Shown here: positions 2,781 through 12,307 of the stretch, one piece after another
How the letters are laid out: each line of letters opens with the position of its first letter
Numbering within the stretch: position 1 is the stretch's first letter
Source of the DNA: Candidatus Nanohaloarchaea archaeon
GTDB taxonomy: Archaea > Nanohalarchaeota > Nanosalinia > Nanosalinales > Nanosalinaceae
Direction of reading: 5' to 3'
Assembly (NCBI GenBank): GCA_046497485.1
Contig: JAWOFP010000064.1
Span: 1-17,656 of the forward strand
DNA: 17,656 nt
Notes under the pieces: generated by a model
What the model saw: only the letters and a program-made list of their open reading frames with translations
Told to the model about the DNA's origin: nothing
Databases searched by the model: none
Program-made: the position numbers and the translations under genes

Positions 2781-5700
2781 TCAAATCTCCTGATCAAGTA
2801 TAGGATCAAAAACCTTATCTTCAGACTTAAAGTAAGGATAATAAACCCTATAAACTTTCCCAGAGTACTCGGACTCCACAGAGCTCTTCTCAACATTATA
2901 ATCAATCAAATCATCCGCTACAACAGCATCTTCTTCTCTTTCGACTTCTAAAACCGATTCAACAGCCTCACCCTCGCTCACCAAACCTTTCTCCTCTAAA
3001 GAATCGATTCTTGTCGAAACCTTAGCCAAACTGATGCCTAACTCATCGGAAATACCAGCTTGGTCGAGGCCTTCACTCAAAAGATCTAAAACTTCGTCCT
3101 CAGATTCAGAAGGCTTCTCACGAGAGGCCTTAATCTCTCCTTTGACACCATCAATTAGAACTTCTTTTTCATCTGTATCTACAAGATAGAGAGGATAGTA
3201 AGCAGTAGCAAATTTCTCTCCATAGGTAGATTCTATCTCCTGAATATCTTTAAGCGGAGAGAAAAATTCAATATCTTTCTGCTCTACATAAGTATCGGCT
3301 GTCTGAGTCTCTCCACCATGCATGGACTTTCTCACTCTTACATCCGTCATCACCGGATAATCATTTCCGAGCAGAAATGCGACTCCAGGCGGCAACGACT
3401 TAATCATATCCTCCACCTCAGAAGTAACACCTTCAAACGACTTTGAAATAGCCTTCAAATCATTAGGATTAGTAACCCGTAGAATAAACTGAGTATTAGC
3501 CTGAGAAAGCACATTCTTATCGATTCGAGCAGGCCTCTGAGAAATAACTCCGATACCCAATCCAAATTTACGTCCTTCCGAAGCAATCTTCCTCATAATC
3601 GGATTTGAGACCGCTTGGCCAAAGCCTTTCTCAGGCACAAAGTTATGAGCCTCCTCAATCACCATGATAAACGGAGGAATCCTATTCTTCTTCCTTAAAT
3701 CGAACAATTTCTTTGCCAGCATGTAAGCAGTCATTTCAGTTGGCTCAGGCTCAACTGCCTTCAAATTAATTATAGTGGCTCTTCCTGGCTCCACTAAATC
3801 CTTGAGATCGATGGGATTTTCTGAGAACAGGCCTGACTCCTCAAGCTGCTCCAAGTAATTTAGTAAGTTCCATTTAGCAGTAGAATCTTCCTGACTTACA
3901 GCATCCTGAATATCCAGCAAATTATAATCGTCTTCTTTATCTTTCAAGTGCTTTAAAGCATTGTAAAGCACCCCCATCTGTGAATTAGTCAATGAATCCG
4001 GAATCAGTGTAGTAAGCTCTTTTTTATCCAAGTTCACAGATGAAAACTGTAGTGGTAAGGCCTCACGATTAATATCGGTATTAGGAGAGTATTCCTTTAC
4101 TTCATAACTATCAGGCTCATCGCTGTCCGGATTAGGCTTTTTCAAAGAAGAGTACTCTCCGTGAGGATCCAAGACCAGTACAGGAAAATCTGCTTCAAGC
4201 ATCTCCTCAATTAAAACTCCCACAGTGTAGCTATTATGAGACACTATACCTCCTCTTCCCGCAATAAAGTTATGATGATCTCTAACTGTGATATCGTAAA
4301 CATATCCATCATGACTTACTTCTTCAATTGATACTATCTTATCCCAAAATAAATCTGAGTCCGCCAGATTTGAATAGAGCTCAGAGTCCAAATGCTCGGA
4401 CATTTCGCTCATTTTTTCTCTTGCAGGCCTTCTCTCATTACGTTCATAGAGCGAGATAAGTGTGGAATGAACTCCAATTTTCTCTCCTAGCTTAGCTTGA
4501 GAAAGACCTAGTTTACTTCTTTCCTTCTTTAGATACTCTCCTTCAACAGGGATCACATCGACATTTGTGTTGCCTTCCTTGGTCGCAAGATAATTCTCCA
4601 ATCTTTCTTGCTTCCTATCGATTCCAAAACCTATTTGTTTTGAAAATCTCTGCATCTGCTTAACTCCGCTGATAGCTATCCGATAGTAAATATCGCCTTC
4701 GTGATCGGAATTAGTTGCTTGCTTTTCACGGGAAGAGATTCTAGAGACAATGCCAAATTCCAAAAGCATGTAGCTTATCTGATTAATCATTTCCTCACTA
4801 GCAGAAGACAAAGTAATCTCATGATCCTCCATAGAACCCTCGCAGTCAAAGAAAGCTCGTAAAAACTTTCTCTTAGGCCTCCTAGATGAAGTCATTACGC
4901 ACTTAGGAACGGATTTTGACCTTGATTTCTGCAAAGTTTCATATCCAACTTCCTCCAGAAAGTGTTTTAATGAAATAGAGTCTATATACGAAGCATTTTT
5001 TCTCATTTTTGACGGTTCAAGATTAAAGAGCTCTGAGCCAAGCTCCTCAAACTTCTTCATCAAACCTTCGTTATTGTTTGTGAAAATAATCCTATAACTA
5101 TTCTCTTGTTGCTCAGTACCCTCTGCCAGGATTAGCGCCAGAAATTCTGTTAGATCTGCATTAATATACTTAGGAGTATTTAAGGCCTTCATTCTTTCTC
5201 CTATAACAAATCCTTGTCCAACCTCAGGCCTACTCCCTTGGTATTTCCATTTTTCTAAAGTGCTCTTGTTCACTCCCAGTTTTTCCGATATTCTGGATAC
5301 TGAGCTTTCATCTTCTACAAGTTCTTTAAATTCGTCAAAATTCTTGGCAAGCTTCTGCCTTCTCTCATTTTCAGAATCTATCTTGTTTGTAATATCTTCA
5401 GAGAACTGGATATTATCAGTTGATTTAAAATCTGTTTTACGAGGAACCGCAACATGCATCCCTTCATCCACTTCTGAGGCCTCAACAAAATCGTAACTAT
5501 TCTCTGCAACCATCAATGGATGTTCCTCTGTTACTTCTATCTCTCTACCAGACTCAGTCTTAATCCTTAAAATTTTATCACACTTTTTACGGTATGCATA
5601 AACTGCGTCTGCATCTACAATTTCAAATTCGTCATTAACGGCCTTAATAGAGCAATCATTAACTGTTCTAAGCTCTTCATCTTCGGACTCCTTAACAGTT

Positions 5701-6182
5701 GAATTAGAATTTTCAAAAATTTTCTTAATGTTCTTCAATGACCCATCACTCATTAAAATATCTGTATCAGGAGTTACGCACTTCCCTGCTCCGGTTTGGG
5801 CTAAGACCGCAAAATGCTTGTAGAAGTCGTCAGGATCTACCATTATGTCTATATCTGGATTAGTTTCCAAGTTACCGACTCTAAGGCCTTTCTCATTCAG
5901 TCCTAAAGTATCGGAGATAAGTTCTTGATCCGCTTCATAGATGATTGAGTCAGGATCTATAACATGTCTAGGAGCTCTTGTAAGGCCTTTATCCCTATAT
6001 CCAATTATATTTGCGGTAGCTGTTGTTTCTCCGTCTTTATGTTTAGTTACTTGATCAACTTGAGCTAAAATCCATTTATCGTTGCTTTTCACTGATACAA
6101 AGTCGAATTTCCCTACTTTTTCAGTCGCTCTGAACTTGAAAGAAGAGGTGTTTACATCGCCTTCAATTACTCCTACTTGCAT
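2781..6182 (-). CDS. HerA/DUF87-family (FtsK-HerA) ATPase precursor containing an intein; spliced product about 617 aa with a C-terminal winged-helix extension
   Basis: N-terminal HAS-barrel-like region; KHFAVLAQTGAGK|SYT Walker A split by the intein; VLVLDPHGEY; Walker B MVIEEAHNF; IASEGRKFG; ISQRPA; LSQANTQ. Confidence 0.9.
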   Translation of the reverse strand: MQVGVIEGDVNTSSFKFRATEKVGKFDFVSVKSNDKWILAQVDQVTKHKDGETTATANIIGYRDKGLTRAPRHVIDPDSIIYEADQELISDTLGLNEKGLRVGNLETNPDIDIMVDPDDFYKHFAVLAQTGAGKCVTPDTDILMSDGSLKNIKKIFENSNSTVKESEDEELRTVNDCSIKAVNDEFEIVDADAVYAYRKKCDKILRIKTESGREIEVTEEHPLMVAENSYDFVEASEVDEGMHVAVPRKTDFKSTDNIQFSEDITNKIDSENERRQKLAKNFDEFKELVEDESSVSRISEKLGVNKSTLEKWKYQGSRPEVGQGFVIGERMKALNTPKYINADLTEFLALILAEGTEQQENSYRIIFTNNNEGLMKKFEELGSELFNLEPSKMRKNASYIDSISLKHFLEEVGYETLQKSRSKSVPKCVMTSSRRPKRKFLRAFFDCEGSMEDHEITLSSASEEMINQISYMLLEFGIVSRISSREKQATNSDHEGDIYYRIAISGVKQMQRFSKQIGFGIDRKQERLENYLATKEGNTNVDVIPVEGEYLKKERSKLGLSQAKLGEKIGVHSTLISLYERNERRPAREKMSEMSEHLDSELYSNLADSDLFWDKIVSIEEVSHDGYVYDITVRDHHNFIAGRGGIVSHNSYTVGVLIEEMLEADFPVLVLDPHGEYSSLKKPNPDSDEPDSYEVKEYSPNTDINREALPLQFSSVNLDKKELTTLIPDSLTNSQMGVLYNALKHLKDKEDDYNLLDIQDAVSQEDSTAKWNLLNYLEQLEESGLFSENPIDLKDLVEPGRATIINLKAVEPEPTEMTAYMLAKKLFDLRKKNRIPPFIMVIEEAHNFVPEKGFGQAVSNPIMRKIASEGRKFGLGIGVISQRPARIDKNVLSQANTQFILRVTNPNDLKAISKSFEGVTSEVEDMIKSLPPGVAFLLGNDYPVMTDVRVRKSMHGGETQTADTYVEQKDIEFFSPLKDIQEIESTYGEKFATAYYPLYLVDTDEKEVLIDGVKGEIKASREKPSESEDEVLDLLSEGLDQAGISDELGISLAKVSTRIDSLEEKGLVSEGEAVESVLEVEREEDAVVADDLIDYNVEKSSVESEYSGKVYRVYYPYFKSEDKVFDPILDQEI
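4233..5780 (-). mobile_element. Intein (516 aa) with LAGLIDADG homing endonuclease and two HTH-like inserts
   Basis: Begins CVTPDT (block A), has IEVTEEHPL (block B TxxH), FLALILAEG and FLRAFFDCEG (LAGLIDADG blocks C and E), YVYDITV..HHNFIA (block F), and ends SHN before Ser+1 of the extein. Removing it restores GAGKS. Confidence 0.95.
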
Positions 6183-7878: not shown

Positions 7879-9696
7879 TTAGTTATTCATCTCTTCAAAT
7901 GTAGCAGAAGACCCACCATACTTGAAATTATCAAAGTAATATTTTCTTTCAGTTACTCTGGGCCTTTCATTCATTCCTTCCCAAACCCATTTGTAGATAC
8001 CAAATTTCCCCGATCTTGGAGGGTTTACTTCTCTTGCAGTAGTAGGACCTTCATGGTCATAGACTAAGCTATCATTAACCCATATTTTCATGAGCCCTTC
8101 TTCACCTTCATGTTCCTCGCCATGATGCGACCATTTAATCTGCATTGTGATATCATACCATGTTCCGGGTTCAAGATCTTCACTGTATTCTGCCCAGTCT
8201 GTTCTCCTGATATACTCCCCCTGCTCATCAGTCTCTAGAGAACCATCAGATAAGATATTATTTCTATCTAGGCCTCCCTGAATATCCATAAGATCTCCTG
8301 AAGGTCCAGTCGAATCAGGGCTTGGATACTCATCCACATAGGAATTAATGAATATCAGTTTATCGTTTTGAACATTTACTGAGAGAGGTTTCCCGTTCCC
8401 CAGACAGTAACTTGTGTAATCGCAGACCTGTTGTTGGTTTTCCTCTGTCCACCCCTCAAAATTATCATAATCTATAACAGGTAAATCCGCTACCGACCTG
8501 TGGAACTCATAGATTTGCTCCCTGTTTTCGTCTTCTTCAAAATCTTCAGGCACATAGAATGAGAAGGTATGCCAGAACCCTGAGTTCCAGCGCCTCGCTA
8601 CATTATCGTAAATCCTATCTCCGCGATCGTTCAAACTTGGATTAACCCTTACACTGTTTACACCGCTGTAGTCCCAGTCATAGTCCATGCTAGTTTTAAG
8701 GGAATAATCTCCTTTTCTTGAAACTTCATCAGTGATAACAGTCGCTTCTAAAGCATGCTGCGAAGGCACAGATCTATCAGTATTAACATATGTCGATTCT
8801 CCTGACTCAAATAATTCATGTAAAAAGATATTATTCGAGTTCTCTGAAGCCTTTTCATGGTAATTAGAAGACTGGTATATTGAAGTAATATCACCCTGGG
8901 AAATTGCACGATCAAAAATCTTGAACTCGTCAATTTCTCCGTTCCAATGCCTTCTAAAGCTTTCTGAACCGTCCTCTGCATCATCATAATTTGCGCCTAT
9001 CTGAAGAGGTGTATCTACCGATCCTACAGACTGGCTTACTGAAGAACTATCAGTTTTAACACTGTTTACATACATTTCAGCAGTTTCTTCCTCTCTACTA
9101 AATGTAACCGCAACATGACTCCATTCATTTTCTGGAACTGTAGATGAGACCGTAGTATGCGAGTTACAGTCATTTAGGCCTCCTCTAAACTCTGCAGTTA
9201 TAAGTTGAGTGCCATCTAAACGCCTTATTTGATAACTGCAGTCTCCTCTACCAGATATAGCCTCCCAGTTTGTTGAGTAGTCAGGTTTTATCCATGTTGA
9301 GATGGTGAACTCCTCAGTATAATCTGTATCTTGTATTTCATACACACCATCTATTTCTGTGGAGGAAACCTCATATCTTGGCTCTGGCGCATCATCTGCA
9401 GACGCTCCATCATTATCAGAAACAGAGTCTGTTTCTTCGCCACTAGAATCTTCAATATTTTCTCCTTCATTATTTTCATTATCATCAAGATCGGAGTCAT
9501 CAACATTTTGCTCTTCTGTTTCAGTGTTAGAATCTTCCTCAGAATCAGAACTAGAATCTACATTCTTCGAGTAATCTATAAAATTTGAAGCAGCATCAGA
9601 GACATTAGAACTACCTGAAAATCCTATATACATTATAGATCCTGCTGCAAAAACCATTACTGCAGCCCCCATGATTAAGGCGATAATCTGATTCAT
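7879..9696 (-). CDS. Membrane-anchored or secreted protein: S/D/E-rich linker, LamG/ConA-like lectin domain, polysaccharide-lyase-like jelly-roll domain
   Basis: Hydrophobic N-terminus; low-complexity acidic linker (about aa 45-105). LamG motifs: FTISTWIKP, EWSHVAVTF, MYVNSV, LQIGA, WNGEIDEFKIFDRAIS. Lyase-like motifs: WHTFSFYVPEDF, QIYEFH, PGTWYDITMQIKWS, GLMKIWVND, KFGIYK. Confidence 0.8.
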   Translation of the reverse strand: MNQIIALIMGAAVMVFAAGSIMYIGFSGSSNVSDAASNFIDYSKNVDSSSDSEEDSNTETEEQNVDDSDLDDNENNEGENIEDSSGEETDSVSDNDGASADDAPEPRYEVSSTEIDGVYEIQDTDYTEEFTISTWIKPDYSTNWEAISGRGDCSYQIRRLDGTQLITAEFRGGLNDCNSHTTVSSTVPENEWSHVAVTFSREEETAEMYVNSVKTDSSSVSQSVGSVDTPLQIGANYDDAEDGSESFRRHWNGEIDEFKIFDRAISQGDITSIYQSSNYHEKASENSNNIFLHELFESGESTYVNTDRSVPSQHALEATVITDEVSRKGDYSLKTSMDYDWDYSGVNSVRVNPSLNDRGDRIYDNVARRWNSGFWHTFSFYVPEDFEEDENREQIYEFHRSVADLPVIDYDNFEGWTEENQQQVCDYTSYCLGNGKPLSVNVQNDKLIFINSYVDEYPSPDSTGPSGDLMDIQGGLDRNNILSDGSLETDEQGEYIRRTDWAEYSEDLEPGTWYDITMQIKWSHHGEEHEGEEGLMKIWVNDSLVYDHEGPTTAREVNPPRSGKFGIYKWVWEGMNERPRVTERKYYFDNFKYGGSSATFEEMNN

Positions 9697-10350: not shown

Positions 10351-10545
10351 ATGGCAAAGAATAAACTTTACCGTTCGGAAACAGATAAGTGGATTGCAGG
10401 AGTATGCGGAGGAATAGCTGAAGTATACGATGTTGATCCGGCTCTAGTAAGGGTAGCTGCAGTATTACTAGCTTTCACACAGGTTGGAATATTAGCATAC
10501 CTGGCTGCATGGCTGATTATCCCTCATGAATCAGAACTTGAGTAG
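10351..10545 (+). CDS. pspC: PspC-domain membrane protein
   Basis: [31 protein letters not shown] ... YLAAWLIIP is the classic PspC pattern. Confidence 0.92.
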
Positions 10546-10633
10546 GCCGTCAGCACTCAAAATCTAACCCGCAACATATTCTATCCTTATTTTTGTTAGG
10601 CGAGTTAATTCCCGCAGGGTTCATCATCCAGCC
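10545..10633 (-). ncRNA. Box C/D guide sRNA (K-turn), predicted guide for Cm34 of tRNA-Leu(CAA)
   Basis: Minus strand reads GGCUG-G-AUGAUGA (box C, 10621-10627) ... CUGA (box D, 10550-10553)-CGGCC. Terminal stem GGCUG/CGGCC, a 3-nt GAU bulge and tandem G.A pairs give a canonical K-turn. It fills the gap between convergent pspC and pheT almost exactly. Confidence 0.8.
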
Positions 10634-10641
10634 ATTATAAA

Positions 10642-12270
10642 TTAATAGGACTTCTCCAGATTCTCTAAGTCAAGCTCAAAGCCCGAGACATCTACATCAA
10701 GACCCCAGTTATCAGCTACTTTTTCCTTGAACTCACAGATATAGCCGATTTCTTCACCTTCAAGGCAGATCTTGGCAGATCTCTTAGATTTACCATACTC
10801 ATAGTGATCCTCTTCAAGAGCGAATTTCAGGCCTAATGCATTTTCAAGGACTTGTAAGGCCTTTCTTGCTTCAGTATAATCTATATTGCCAGCCTTTAGG
10901 TAGCAGATTTTCTTTTTATTCTCTGCTTCTGGCATCTCGACGACCTCTCCTACTTCAAAGAAAGTCTGCGGATAGCTTTGATGTCTATTTTCTTTAAGTA
11001 CTTCAAAGATAGATGGCGTCATCCAGCTTCGAACAACTTCATAATCCTCAGTCAAAGCGTTAGCCATAGAGGCATGAGGGCTCTCATCGAGCTCCATCTT
11101 ATCAAATAATTTCTCTTTACTGGATAAAGTAAATGTATGCGTTTCCAATGCCCCTGAACCTATCAAGGCCTCTCTAACCACCTTGGAGAACTCCTCTAAT
11201 TCATTCTCCGAGCCTATCTGATCTACCTCCGGTAATTCTGGCTCAATATTATTGTATCTATATGCGATAACGATGTCCTCAATGAGATCATAGCTATGCA
11301 TTATATCAGTTCTGTAGCACGGGACATCCACATCTACTTTCTTTTTAGAGGCTTTAGCACCATAACCCATTGATTCCAGCAGTTCAGCGGCGTCTTTTCC
11401 AGAAAGGTCTAGGCCTGAAACTGAGTTCAAGTACTCGATATCCAAGTCTCTTCTTTCTGGCTCCAGTTTCGGCAGTCTTTCCTCACCTACTTCTAAATTC
11501 TCAAGCTCACCGCCTCTATCGGACAAAGCAGTTGACAAAATATTCAAGGCCTTTTTAACCGTTTCCTGGTCTTTTCCTGTCACATCGATAAATATATCCG
11601 TCGTCTTATGATCGACTTCAGTCAATTGGTTGTTAATGATAGGCGGGAAGCTAAGGACTTGGCCTTTGGAGTCTTCAATTATAGGATATTTTTCTTCGTC
11701 TTCTAGAATCCAAGCGTATTCCTGTCCTTTCTCATGCTCATCGACAATCTGGCCAAGATCCATATCTCTGTCGTATTCAAGAGGCGTGAAAGATACTTTT
11801 TCGGGCTCAACAGCTCTATAAGTAAACGGCGGCTCAAGCTCTGAAAGATCATGAAGACCTATCGCCAGTTTATCTCTTCTACGACCTAAAGTTTCGTGAA
11901 TCTTCTCTTGCAACTGAATCAAACCATTAATAGCTCTTTCATCAAGCTCCAAATCCCTGACTACTGCCGCACCTATTACAGGCCTTACTTCTTCAACCGA
12001 TTCTTCGACTTCAAGCTTCAGTCCTCCTTTCGAAACCTTATATTCTTCTAGGCCTTCTTCTATCCCAAAGTAACGGGAGTAAGCTCTTGCAAGGCCTTCC
12101 ACACTCAATAGATCGGGTCTGTTAGGATATACTTCTACATCCCATTTGACACCTTCGACACGGTTCCAGTGTACTCCTAAATAGGATGCTTCTTCCTCAA
12201 GTTTTTCGTCTTCAATACCTGTTCCGATTAATCTCTCAAACTCATTCTTGTTAATTTCGATGTGTGCCAT
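10642..12270 (-). CDS. pheT: Phenylalanine--tRNA ligase beta subunit (archaeal type)
   Basis: PNRPDLLSVEGLAR, LIQLQEKIH..LGRRR..AIGLHD, LSFPPIIN, PCYRTDIMHSYDLIEDIVIAY. ATG 12270 is preceded by SD GGAGGAGG (12277-12284); the ORF track start at 12273 is the TTG just before it. Confidence 0.96.
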   Translation of the reverse strand: MAHIEINKNEFERLIGTGIEDEKLEEEASYLGVHWNRVEGVKWDVEVYPNRPDLLSVEGLARAYSRYFGIEEGLEEYKVSKGGLKLEVEESVEEVRPVIGAAVVRDLELDERAINGLIQLQEKIHETLGRRRDKLAIGLHDLSELEPPFTYRAVEPEKVSFTPLEYDRDMDLGQIVDEHEKGQEYAWILEDEEKYPIIEDSKGQVLSFPPIINNQLTEVDHKTTDIFIDVTGKDQETVKKALNILSTALSDRGGELENLEVGEERLPKLEPERRDLDIEYLNSVSGLDLSGKDAAELLESMGYGAKASKKKVDVDVPCYRTDIMHSYDLIEDIVIAYRYNNIEPELPEVDQIGSENELEEFSKVVREALIGSGALETHTFTLSSKEKLFDKMELDESPHASMANALTEDYEVVRSWMTPSIFEVLKENRHQSYPQTFFEVGEVVEMPEAENKKKICYLKAGNIDYTEARKALQVLENALGLKFALEEDHYEYGKSKRSAKICLEGEEIGYICEFKEKVADNWGLDVDVSGFELDLENLEKSY

Positions 12271-12307
12271 CAAATTCCTCCTCCTTGAATCTCTAAATTA
12301 TCTAATT

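Follow-up and report, generated by a model that had tools for sequence, protein, structure and literature searches.

The window, that is, the whole stretch of 17,656 nucleotides that was analyzed, belongs to contig C10 of a 0.97-Mb archaeal assembly (97% complete; referred to as G000). A 96-nt gap between a gene with a PspC domain and the convergent pheT gene contained a box C/D guide RNA gene (Table 1), and the stop codon of pspC overlapped the last base of the 3' strand of the terminal stem of this RNA. In a scan of the genome, it was the sole intergenic C...D candidate having a terminal duplex below -5 kcal/mol; no match was obtained from Rfam at this locus at E≤5. The pheT transcript may host the sRNA. 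An identity as the terminator or UTR of pheT was rejected, because the sRNA unit was inverted within the same gap in four genomes (G013, G014, G062, and G064); a scan with bacterial-type models found no terminator-like site at the locus. The window also encoded a HerA/DUF87-type ATPase with a LAGLIDADG intein (2781-6182, minus strand) and a 605-aa protein with laminin-G and polysaccharide-lyase domains (7879-9696, minus strand).

Table 1. Features of the guide RNA locus (positions in the window).
Feature	Position	Strand	Remarks
PspC-domain gene	10351..10545	+	convergent; conserved neighbor
box C/D guide sRNA gene, about 89 nt	10545..10633	-	ends inferred from the terminal stem
terminal stem, 3' strand	10545..10549	-	pairs with 10633-10629
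box D, CUGA	10550..10553	-	homologues: CUGA in 22/27, CCGA in 5/27
D guide, 11 nt	10554..10564	-	pairs with the anticodon arm of tRNA-Leu(CAA)
internal hairpin at the place of D'/C'	10565..10607	-	8-bp stem, CU bulge, 4-bp stem, 17-nt loop
spacer 1, 13 nt	10608..10620	-	10619-10608 pairs with the variable arm of tRNA-Leu
box C, AUGAUGA	10621..10627	-	RUGANGA in 27/27 homologues (box C was in the search pattern)
terminal stem, 5' strand, 5 bp	10629..10633	-	covarying in homologues
pheT, Phe-tRNA ligase beta subunit	10642..12273	-	stops 8 nt upstream of the sRNA, same strand

Terminal boxes C (RUGAUGA) and D (CUGA) with the G.A pairs of a K-turn were found as in other archaeal box C/D RNAs, whereas the internal D'/C' K-loop of the canonical bipartite form was not. 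The sequence-only reading had placed a guide at 10554..10620, with a hairpin of 8 bp (one G.U) and AACA/UGUU around an A-rich loop, and spacers of 13 and 11 nt. All of these core elements were present on the minus strand, while the boxes and the 5-bp terminal stem had been omitted from that interval. The outer hairpin stem was formed by UAACUCGC (10607-10600) and GCGGGUUA (10572-10565), and the 4-bp inner stem enclosed the loop. In this genome alone, folding of the hairpin middle was modest: -9.4 kcal/mol, z -2.0, and p 0.04. Shuffled sequences folded as well as the naked 88-nt RNA (z 0.23), whose minimum free energy structure paired spacer 1 with the 3' arm of the hairpin instead. The internal hairpin is established through homologues rather than by the fold of this genome's RNA.

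Sequence, pattern, and synteny searches yielded 27 distinct intact homologues, one each in 27 of the 50 genomes of the family (13 of 21 genera); control searches with reversed patterns gave no matches. When archaeal and bacterial genomes were scanned with a middle of 12-42 nt, 28 matches were returned: eight in Nanohaloarchaea and 20 in bacteria. The latter were taken as chance, and the bacterial loci L059, L066, and L075, which fit the regular expression, were removed before all counts. No convincing homologue or covarying spacer variant appeared among the matches listed for 20 genomes of families f2-f5, and the 10 loose matches examined consisted of one decayed homologue (G049) and coding or tRNA-flanking DNA. 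The search patterns included the two guide cores, whose invariance was therefore partly built in. The terminal stem was absent from every pattern, and was kept in a fixed register in 133 of 135 pairs of the 27 homologues, with 4-6 letter pairs per position; the cross-genome null gave a mean of 81 and a maximum of 101 pairs. Box C and spacer 1 were present in 19 of the 37 pspC loci (37 of 45 loci). The same gap contained decayed guide copies at L150 (G049) and L153 (G050), and the sRNA was missing from it in other genomes including the single-contig G005 and G021. Judged by these sequences, the guide RNA is an independent gene, and the decayed copies and empty gaps make it a dispensable one.

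The absence of good C'/D' boxes, as first noticed in the single sequence, was borne out by the 27 homologues, in which no signal exceeded chance: the best C'/D' mismatch score was 4.52 in homologues and 4.50 in shuffles, and K-loop-like pairs anywhere in the middle were found in 2/27 (2.0 expected by shuffling). A lineage-wide loss of C'/D' was rejected, because four-box guides with exact CUGA boxes (rRNA guides with near-perfect C'/D') were retained in 29 of the 50 family genomes, and two of them in G000; the loss is therefore peculiar to the tRNA-Leu guide. The middle of the homologues ranged from 19 to 151 nt and fell into 22 unrelated sequence clusters. Nevertheless, 25 of the 27 middles folded with p≤0.05 against dinucleotide shuffles (median z -3.2), and a first helix of at least 4 bp was found in 26. 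RNAalifold of the nine homologues with the shortest middles (19-33 nt) identified six pairs in the inner stem, each with 3-5 double changes. When counted up to the predicted stem, the two spacers of about 12 nt each that are typical of the class were recovered: the stem began 11-15 nt after box C (12 nt in 14/27) and ended 9-14 nt before box D. The earlier proposal that a hairpin replaces C'/D' was thus confirmed in the homologues, with near-canonical spacing and with covariation revealing the inner stem. On the other hand, naked folds counted against the hairpin, with an inner stem probability above 0.5 in only 12/27; when the boxes and guide cores were held open, it was above 0.8 in 16 and below 0.2 in seven. 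We infer from the homologues that the sequence and length of the stem are free, and that its base and spacing alone matter.

The same range of lengths would also suit a halfmer with a neutral insert, namely, one long antisense interrupted by tolerated palindromic repeats that do not dock on Nop5. Halfmers are active in vitro (PMC7229835), the spacers formed an almost continuous reverse complement of the tRNA (linker of 1 nt here), the middles of G051 and G053 matched a tRNA-Ala intron and DNA beside a tRNA-Ser in G000, and five other middles have a palindrome in common. We consider such an insert improbable because no hairpin-less form (middle of ≤18 nt) was found in 70 genomes, the stem lay 11-15 nt from box C and 9-14 nt from box D in 27/27, the 22 unrelated middles all folded, and the middle of this genome's sRNA was unique within its genome.

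The genes for tRNA-Leu(CAA) and tRNA-Leu(UAA) were located at C60:5420-5502 and C57:6417-6499, respectively. Pairing between the D guide and the anticodon arm of tRNA-Leu(CAA) extended over 10 bp, one of them G.U, with G10558 at position 5 lying opposite C34; the target base is that at position 5 from box D (PMC3413156). Spacer 1 (10619-10608) paired over 12 bp with the same tRNA's variable arm at C60:5462, 1 nt downstream of the D-guide site; its duplex with the variable arm of tRNA-Leu(UAA) was 10 bp long and included one G.U. The sRNA and tRNA-Leu(CAA) accounted for both occurrences of the 12-mer in the 0.97-Mb genome, and its chance of occurring in one named 83-nt tRNA was about 5e-6 by an arithmetic estimate. 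Targets of spacer 1 were ranked among 41 tRNA genes and three rRNA sequences, the own-16S locus including flanks; two rRNAs from G022 were used as stand-ins because the assembly lacks 23S and has only a partial 16S. The duplex energies were -24.9 kcal/mol for Leu(CAA), -21.4 for Leu(UAA), and -17.1 for the next tRNA, and rRNA was rejected as the target of spacer 1 since the best value in this rRNA set was -15.4. In G000, near-identical pairs of tRNA-Thr(UGU) (C25:10599-10688 and C28:1829-1917) and tRNA-Arg(GCG) (C23:4-75 and C46:21241-21312) were also noted, which may be assembly redundancy.

The sequence-only reading had predicted that the spacer after box C is complementary to the variable arm of a tRNA-Leu, and that this site lies near the anticodon matched by the D guide. 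Both predictions agreed with the tRNA-Leu(CAA) gene, except that the first A of the spacer was unpaired, so that the literal search string matched the sRNA itself alone and the complementarity held for 12 nt. The further claim that a single tRNA is clamped was correct in that both sites are in tRNA-Leu(CAA), but the arm is also common to tRNA-Leu(UAA). None of the three contrary outcomes named beforehand (a non-complementary arm, a match to rRNA instead, or conserved C'/D' boxes without stem covariation) occurred. Together, the two spacers were complementary to an almost uninterrupted segment of the tRNA, the anticodon arm followed by the variable arm, with the hairpin at the junction; the linker between the two sites was 1 nt here and 1-7 nt across homologues. 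Co-folding of the sRNA with either tRNA-Leu gave both duplexes, an intact hairpin, and a three-way junction. These results strongly suggested that the RNA is a real guide, very probably one without C'/D' that is aimed at two sites of tRNA-Leu.

In the 17 genomes with the sRNA and at least one of the two tRNAs, spacer 1 paired over 9-13 bp with every Leu(YAA) arm found. A matched change was observed as one event: in genus g20, the spacer has AA after the core, and both tRNAs have UU. Among the eight genomes with both tRNAs, pairing with the arm was longer for UAA in four and for CAA in one, and equal in three. Since the variable arm is common to tRNA-Leu(UAA), with the longer pairing in 4/8 genomes, the target is probably both Leu(YAA) tRNAs, and tRNA-Leu(UAA) is probably a second substrate beside tRNA-Leu(CAA). 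Position 5 was G in 24/27 homologues, making a Watson-Crick pair with C34 and a wobble pair with U34, and A in three g20 genomes, making a Watson-Crick pair with U34 and a mismatch with C34. The G.U at the Leu(UAA) target in 24/27 counted against the methylation reading, and mismatches at the target position lower activity (PMC1635284).

Scored against the anticodon arm of G000, not against their own tRNAs, the homologues paired through the D guide over 6 bp (six homologues), 7 bp (11), 8 bp (five), 9 bp (three), or 10 bp (two), with a median of 7. Compared with the usual antisense length of 8-12 nt and Watson-Crick pairing at position 5, this RNA had 10 bp with G:C34, and at least 8 bp were found in 10/27 homologues. 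The net binding of a 7-bp D guide alone was -2.4 and +0.1 kcal/mol for CAA and UAA, respectively; the values for spacer 1 alone were -9.9 and -7.2 kcal/mol, with an arm-opening cost of about 6 kcal/mol. Given such a short D guide, it is probably the arm duplex of 9-13 bp that anchors the tRNA. However, the canonical rRNA guides of G000 also pair over about 7 bp, and a short D guide may therefore not need an anchor.

The two four-box guides of G000, C1:1068-1146 and C60:5973-6053 (both on the minus strand), had 7-bp matches with 23S rRNA, to the adjacent U and G in a GGUGUUC stretch and to a CGAUGUC stretch. We take their targets to be probably the equivalents of Um2552/Gm2553. In Haloferax volcanii, no guide was found for these equivalents (PMC2584109).

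In metagenomes, at least 40 of at least 119 loci (L191-L309) were four-box guides against the same Leu anticodon, so that guides of this kind for Leu(YAA) are widespread. A CCC-NNN-GGG spacer was found in none of the four-box Leu guides among the matches listed, for which a 9-nt D guide had been demanded. A D' spacer with CGAACC was present in 17 of the 40 listed four-box Leu guides, and formed 8-11 bp with the junction between the arm and the T-stem of the G000 tRNA-Leu(CAA), at which it is possibly aimed in the same tRNA. A Leu tRNA was the best partner of the D' spacer in 6/40 listed four-box guides, compared with 6.5% for shuffled spacers, using the tRNAs of G000 and not their own.

The tRNA-Trp introns (G000:C14:34355-34490 and L340-L346) of 52-65 nt carried one D-like AUGA and one C-like RAUGAUU around a stem in all seven retrieved, and this putative one-motif guide, for C34, is a second kind. 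The tRNA-Met intron of G000 (C12:1218-1383) resembled it: a stretch antisense to its own anticodon loop is followed by AUGA, a stem, and GAUGAUU, which invites comparison with the tRNA-Met intron of Nanoarchaeum equitans (PMC3491384). The sR-tMet of H. volcanii is a one-motif candidate that keeps the G.A pairs and binds L7Ae. As a separate observation, the hairpins of the homologues L047 and L050 (also L128) matched G000 at C17:9045-9071, in a tRNA-Ala(CGC) intron, and at C7:32257-32284, beside tRNA-Ser(UGA); this putative small dispersed palindromic repeat enters stable-RNA genes.

Fibrillarin, Nop5, and L7Ae are all encoded in the genome. The one SpoU-family methylase found was TrmJ-like rather than TrmL. 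The product of the Nop5 gene (L083:1483-2229 of contig C62 in G000, minus strand) begins at a point equivalent to about residue 113 of Sulfolobus Nop5. About 112 residues are thus missing from its N terminus; they make up the alpha/beta domain to which the recruitment of fibrillarin has been attributed. The frame was equally short in the 27 parsable loci of 30 (L310-L339), and open frames of 247-284 aa were found in all full-length matches but one (47 genomes). In a predicted complex of fibrillarin with residues 1-132 of Nop5, the score was 0.77 (best control, 0.02), the runs agreed in 100% of contacts, and the interface comprised residues 2-20, with partner pLDDT of at least 89. Of the solved pairs, 116 of 157 reached the mark set for this score, as did 2 of 215 mismatched ones; these counts apply only roughly to our own alignments, and the pass may stem from likeness to solved structures. 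The remaining N-terminal helix of Nop5 is predicted to bind fibrillarin. Among the RNA-contact residues of Nop5 (compared with PMC9670817), Q296, K316, K336, and R339 were kept, whereas R313, H327, and R331 differed.

The truncated Nop5, the patchy presence with two decayed copies, and a strong duplex that is the non-catalytic one would be in line with an RNA that does not direct methylation: either an antisense or chaperone RNA by which tRNA-Leu is held or unfolded, or a relic undergoing decay. This appears very unlikely, since position 5 from box D is base 34, the sR47 site, in 27/27 homologues, the terminal stem covaries, fibrillarin and four-box guides are retained, and fibrillarin binding is predicted for the Nop5 helix that remains.

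We favor, with a probability of roughly 60%, a methylation guide with one K-turn for the wobble base of tRNA-Leu(CAA), in which a plain stem would dock on Nop5 and spacer 1 would act as an anchor. L7Ae and one Nop5 would bind the terminal K-turn, and the other Nop5 of the dimer would receive the plain stem with no L7Ae involved, in the manner of the engineered one-stem guides. Spacer 1 would invade the weak variable arm of 3-4 bp and hold the tRNA by a G+C-rich duplex of 9-13 bp; this anchoring would allow the D guide of 6-10 bp to engage the anticodon loop, and fibrillarin would 2'-O-methylate position 34. In published work, halfmer guides function in vitro (PMC7229835), and a plain stem replaces a C/D motif in Nop5 binding and methylates at position 5 without L7Ae in vitro (Wang, Yang, and Ye 2022, PMC9670817). 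Counted against this reading, pairing over 10 bp inhibits archaeal RNPs at low temperature (PMC7229835), and both motifs were needed for exact specificity in one study (PMC1635284).

The ability of engineered stems to direct methylation at position 5 without L7Ae (PMC9670817) would equally allow a dual guide, in which the plain stem is equivalent to D' and spacer 1 also directs 2'-O-methylation within the 5' strand of the variable arm, at the third C of CCC when the spacer has 12 nt and at the second when it has 13 nt. Such a second methylation is conceivable because the engineered stem acts 5 nt upstream, and the geometry of the crystal (one unpaired, a 10-bp core, and one unpaired) was found in 14/27 homologues; furthermore, the core began exactly 1 nt past box C in 27/27, although this was fixed by the pattern too. 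In Pyrococcus furiosus, an earlier prediction assigned a guide to G47 of tRNA-Leu(UAA), but the methylation itself was undetected in the tRNAs analyzed there (PMC7668247). Since the distance from core to stem varied over 5 nt (spacer of 11-15 nt), the register set by the stem is not conserved, and we regard the dual guide as a rather unlikely alternative to the anchored guide with a single target base.

The sR47 of Pyrococcus abyssi, considered here with the related tRNA-Leu(UAA) guide, is likewise a box C/D guide in which the D guide has base 34 of Leu(CAA) at position 5 (PMC3413156 and PMC7994747; sR47 is also treated in PMC5558902), and the D guide of the present RNA likewise faces the anticodon loop of Leu(YAA) with base 34 as the target. 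In sR47, a UGAUGA C' box is followed immediately by a guide of 12 nt (oligonucleotides in the supplement of PMC3413156), whereas the nanohaloarchaeal RNA lacks C'/D' and hence the four-box layout. As the two share a guide dictated by the target alone, common descent is not demonstrable; the Rfam family named sR47 (RF01131) had no match in the genome. The layout is closest to the engineered guides BMG1-BMG3 (PMC9670817), which likewise have one K-turn, one plain stem, and two spacers of about 12 nt, and a plain stem of at least 4 bp stood at the place of a C/D pair in 26/27 homologues, with covariation among the nine that have the shortest middles. They differ in that the natural RNA replaces the internal pair, while BMG1 is without the terminal pair; the natural stem-loop is free in length, spacer 2 is about 1-2 nt shorter, and the two spacers are directed at neighboring sites in a single tRNA.

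Pyrobaculum sR46, sR61, sR123, and sR126 also carry a pair of spacers for the same tRNA, but these dual guides are described as rare and have the ordinary four boxes (PMC6009581), whereas in the nanohaloarchaeal RNA the sites are separated by 1-7 nt and a D' box is lacking; unusual boxes occur in 3-11% of known sRNAs (PMC6009581). In yeast and human snoRNAs, a second complementarity beside the target similarly supports a short guide and raises methylation up to five-fold in yeast, but these are eukaryotic, have rRNA targets, and retain divergent but active C'/D' boxes (PMC3116282). The Nanoarchaeum equitans tRNA-Met intron (PMC3491384) and human C/D-like halfmers (PMC7229835) have one recognizable C/D pair or a non-canonical internal motif; they are intronic, or without the second spacer and stem. 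In the literature searched, which included bioRxiv 10.1101/2024.06.21.599552 and few subscription papers and lay outside the original sR47 papers, there was neither a nanohaloarchaeal guide nor a natural guide with a stem for C'/D', and within it the stem-for-box layout was otherwise met in print solely as an engineered molecule.

Whether box-free or one-stem archaeal guides exist was left as an open question in PMC9670817, in which it was suggested that some sRNAs may have a stem for a motif. The nanohaloarchaeal family fits this suggestion, and would be a concrete natural candidate. Its 27 natural variants, one of which has a middle of 19 nt (G052), are offered for in vitro tests of one-stem guides, and since the four-box guides in the same genomes serve as controls, the question is directly testable in vitro. 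The failure of Rfam to match this RNA indicates that search models built on four boxes miss a class of archaeal guides. The arrangement also suggests how the loop of a folded tRNA may become accessible to a guide, namely, through a hold on a weak arm beside it.
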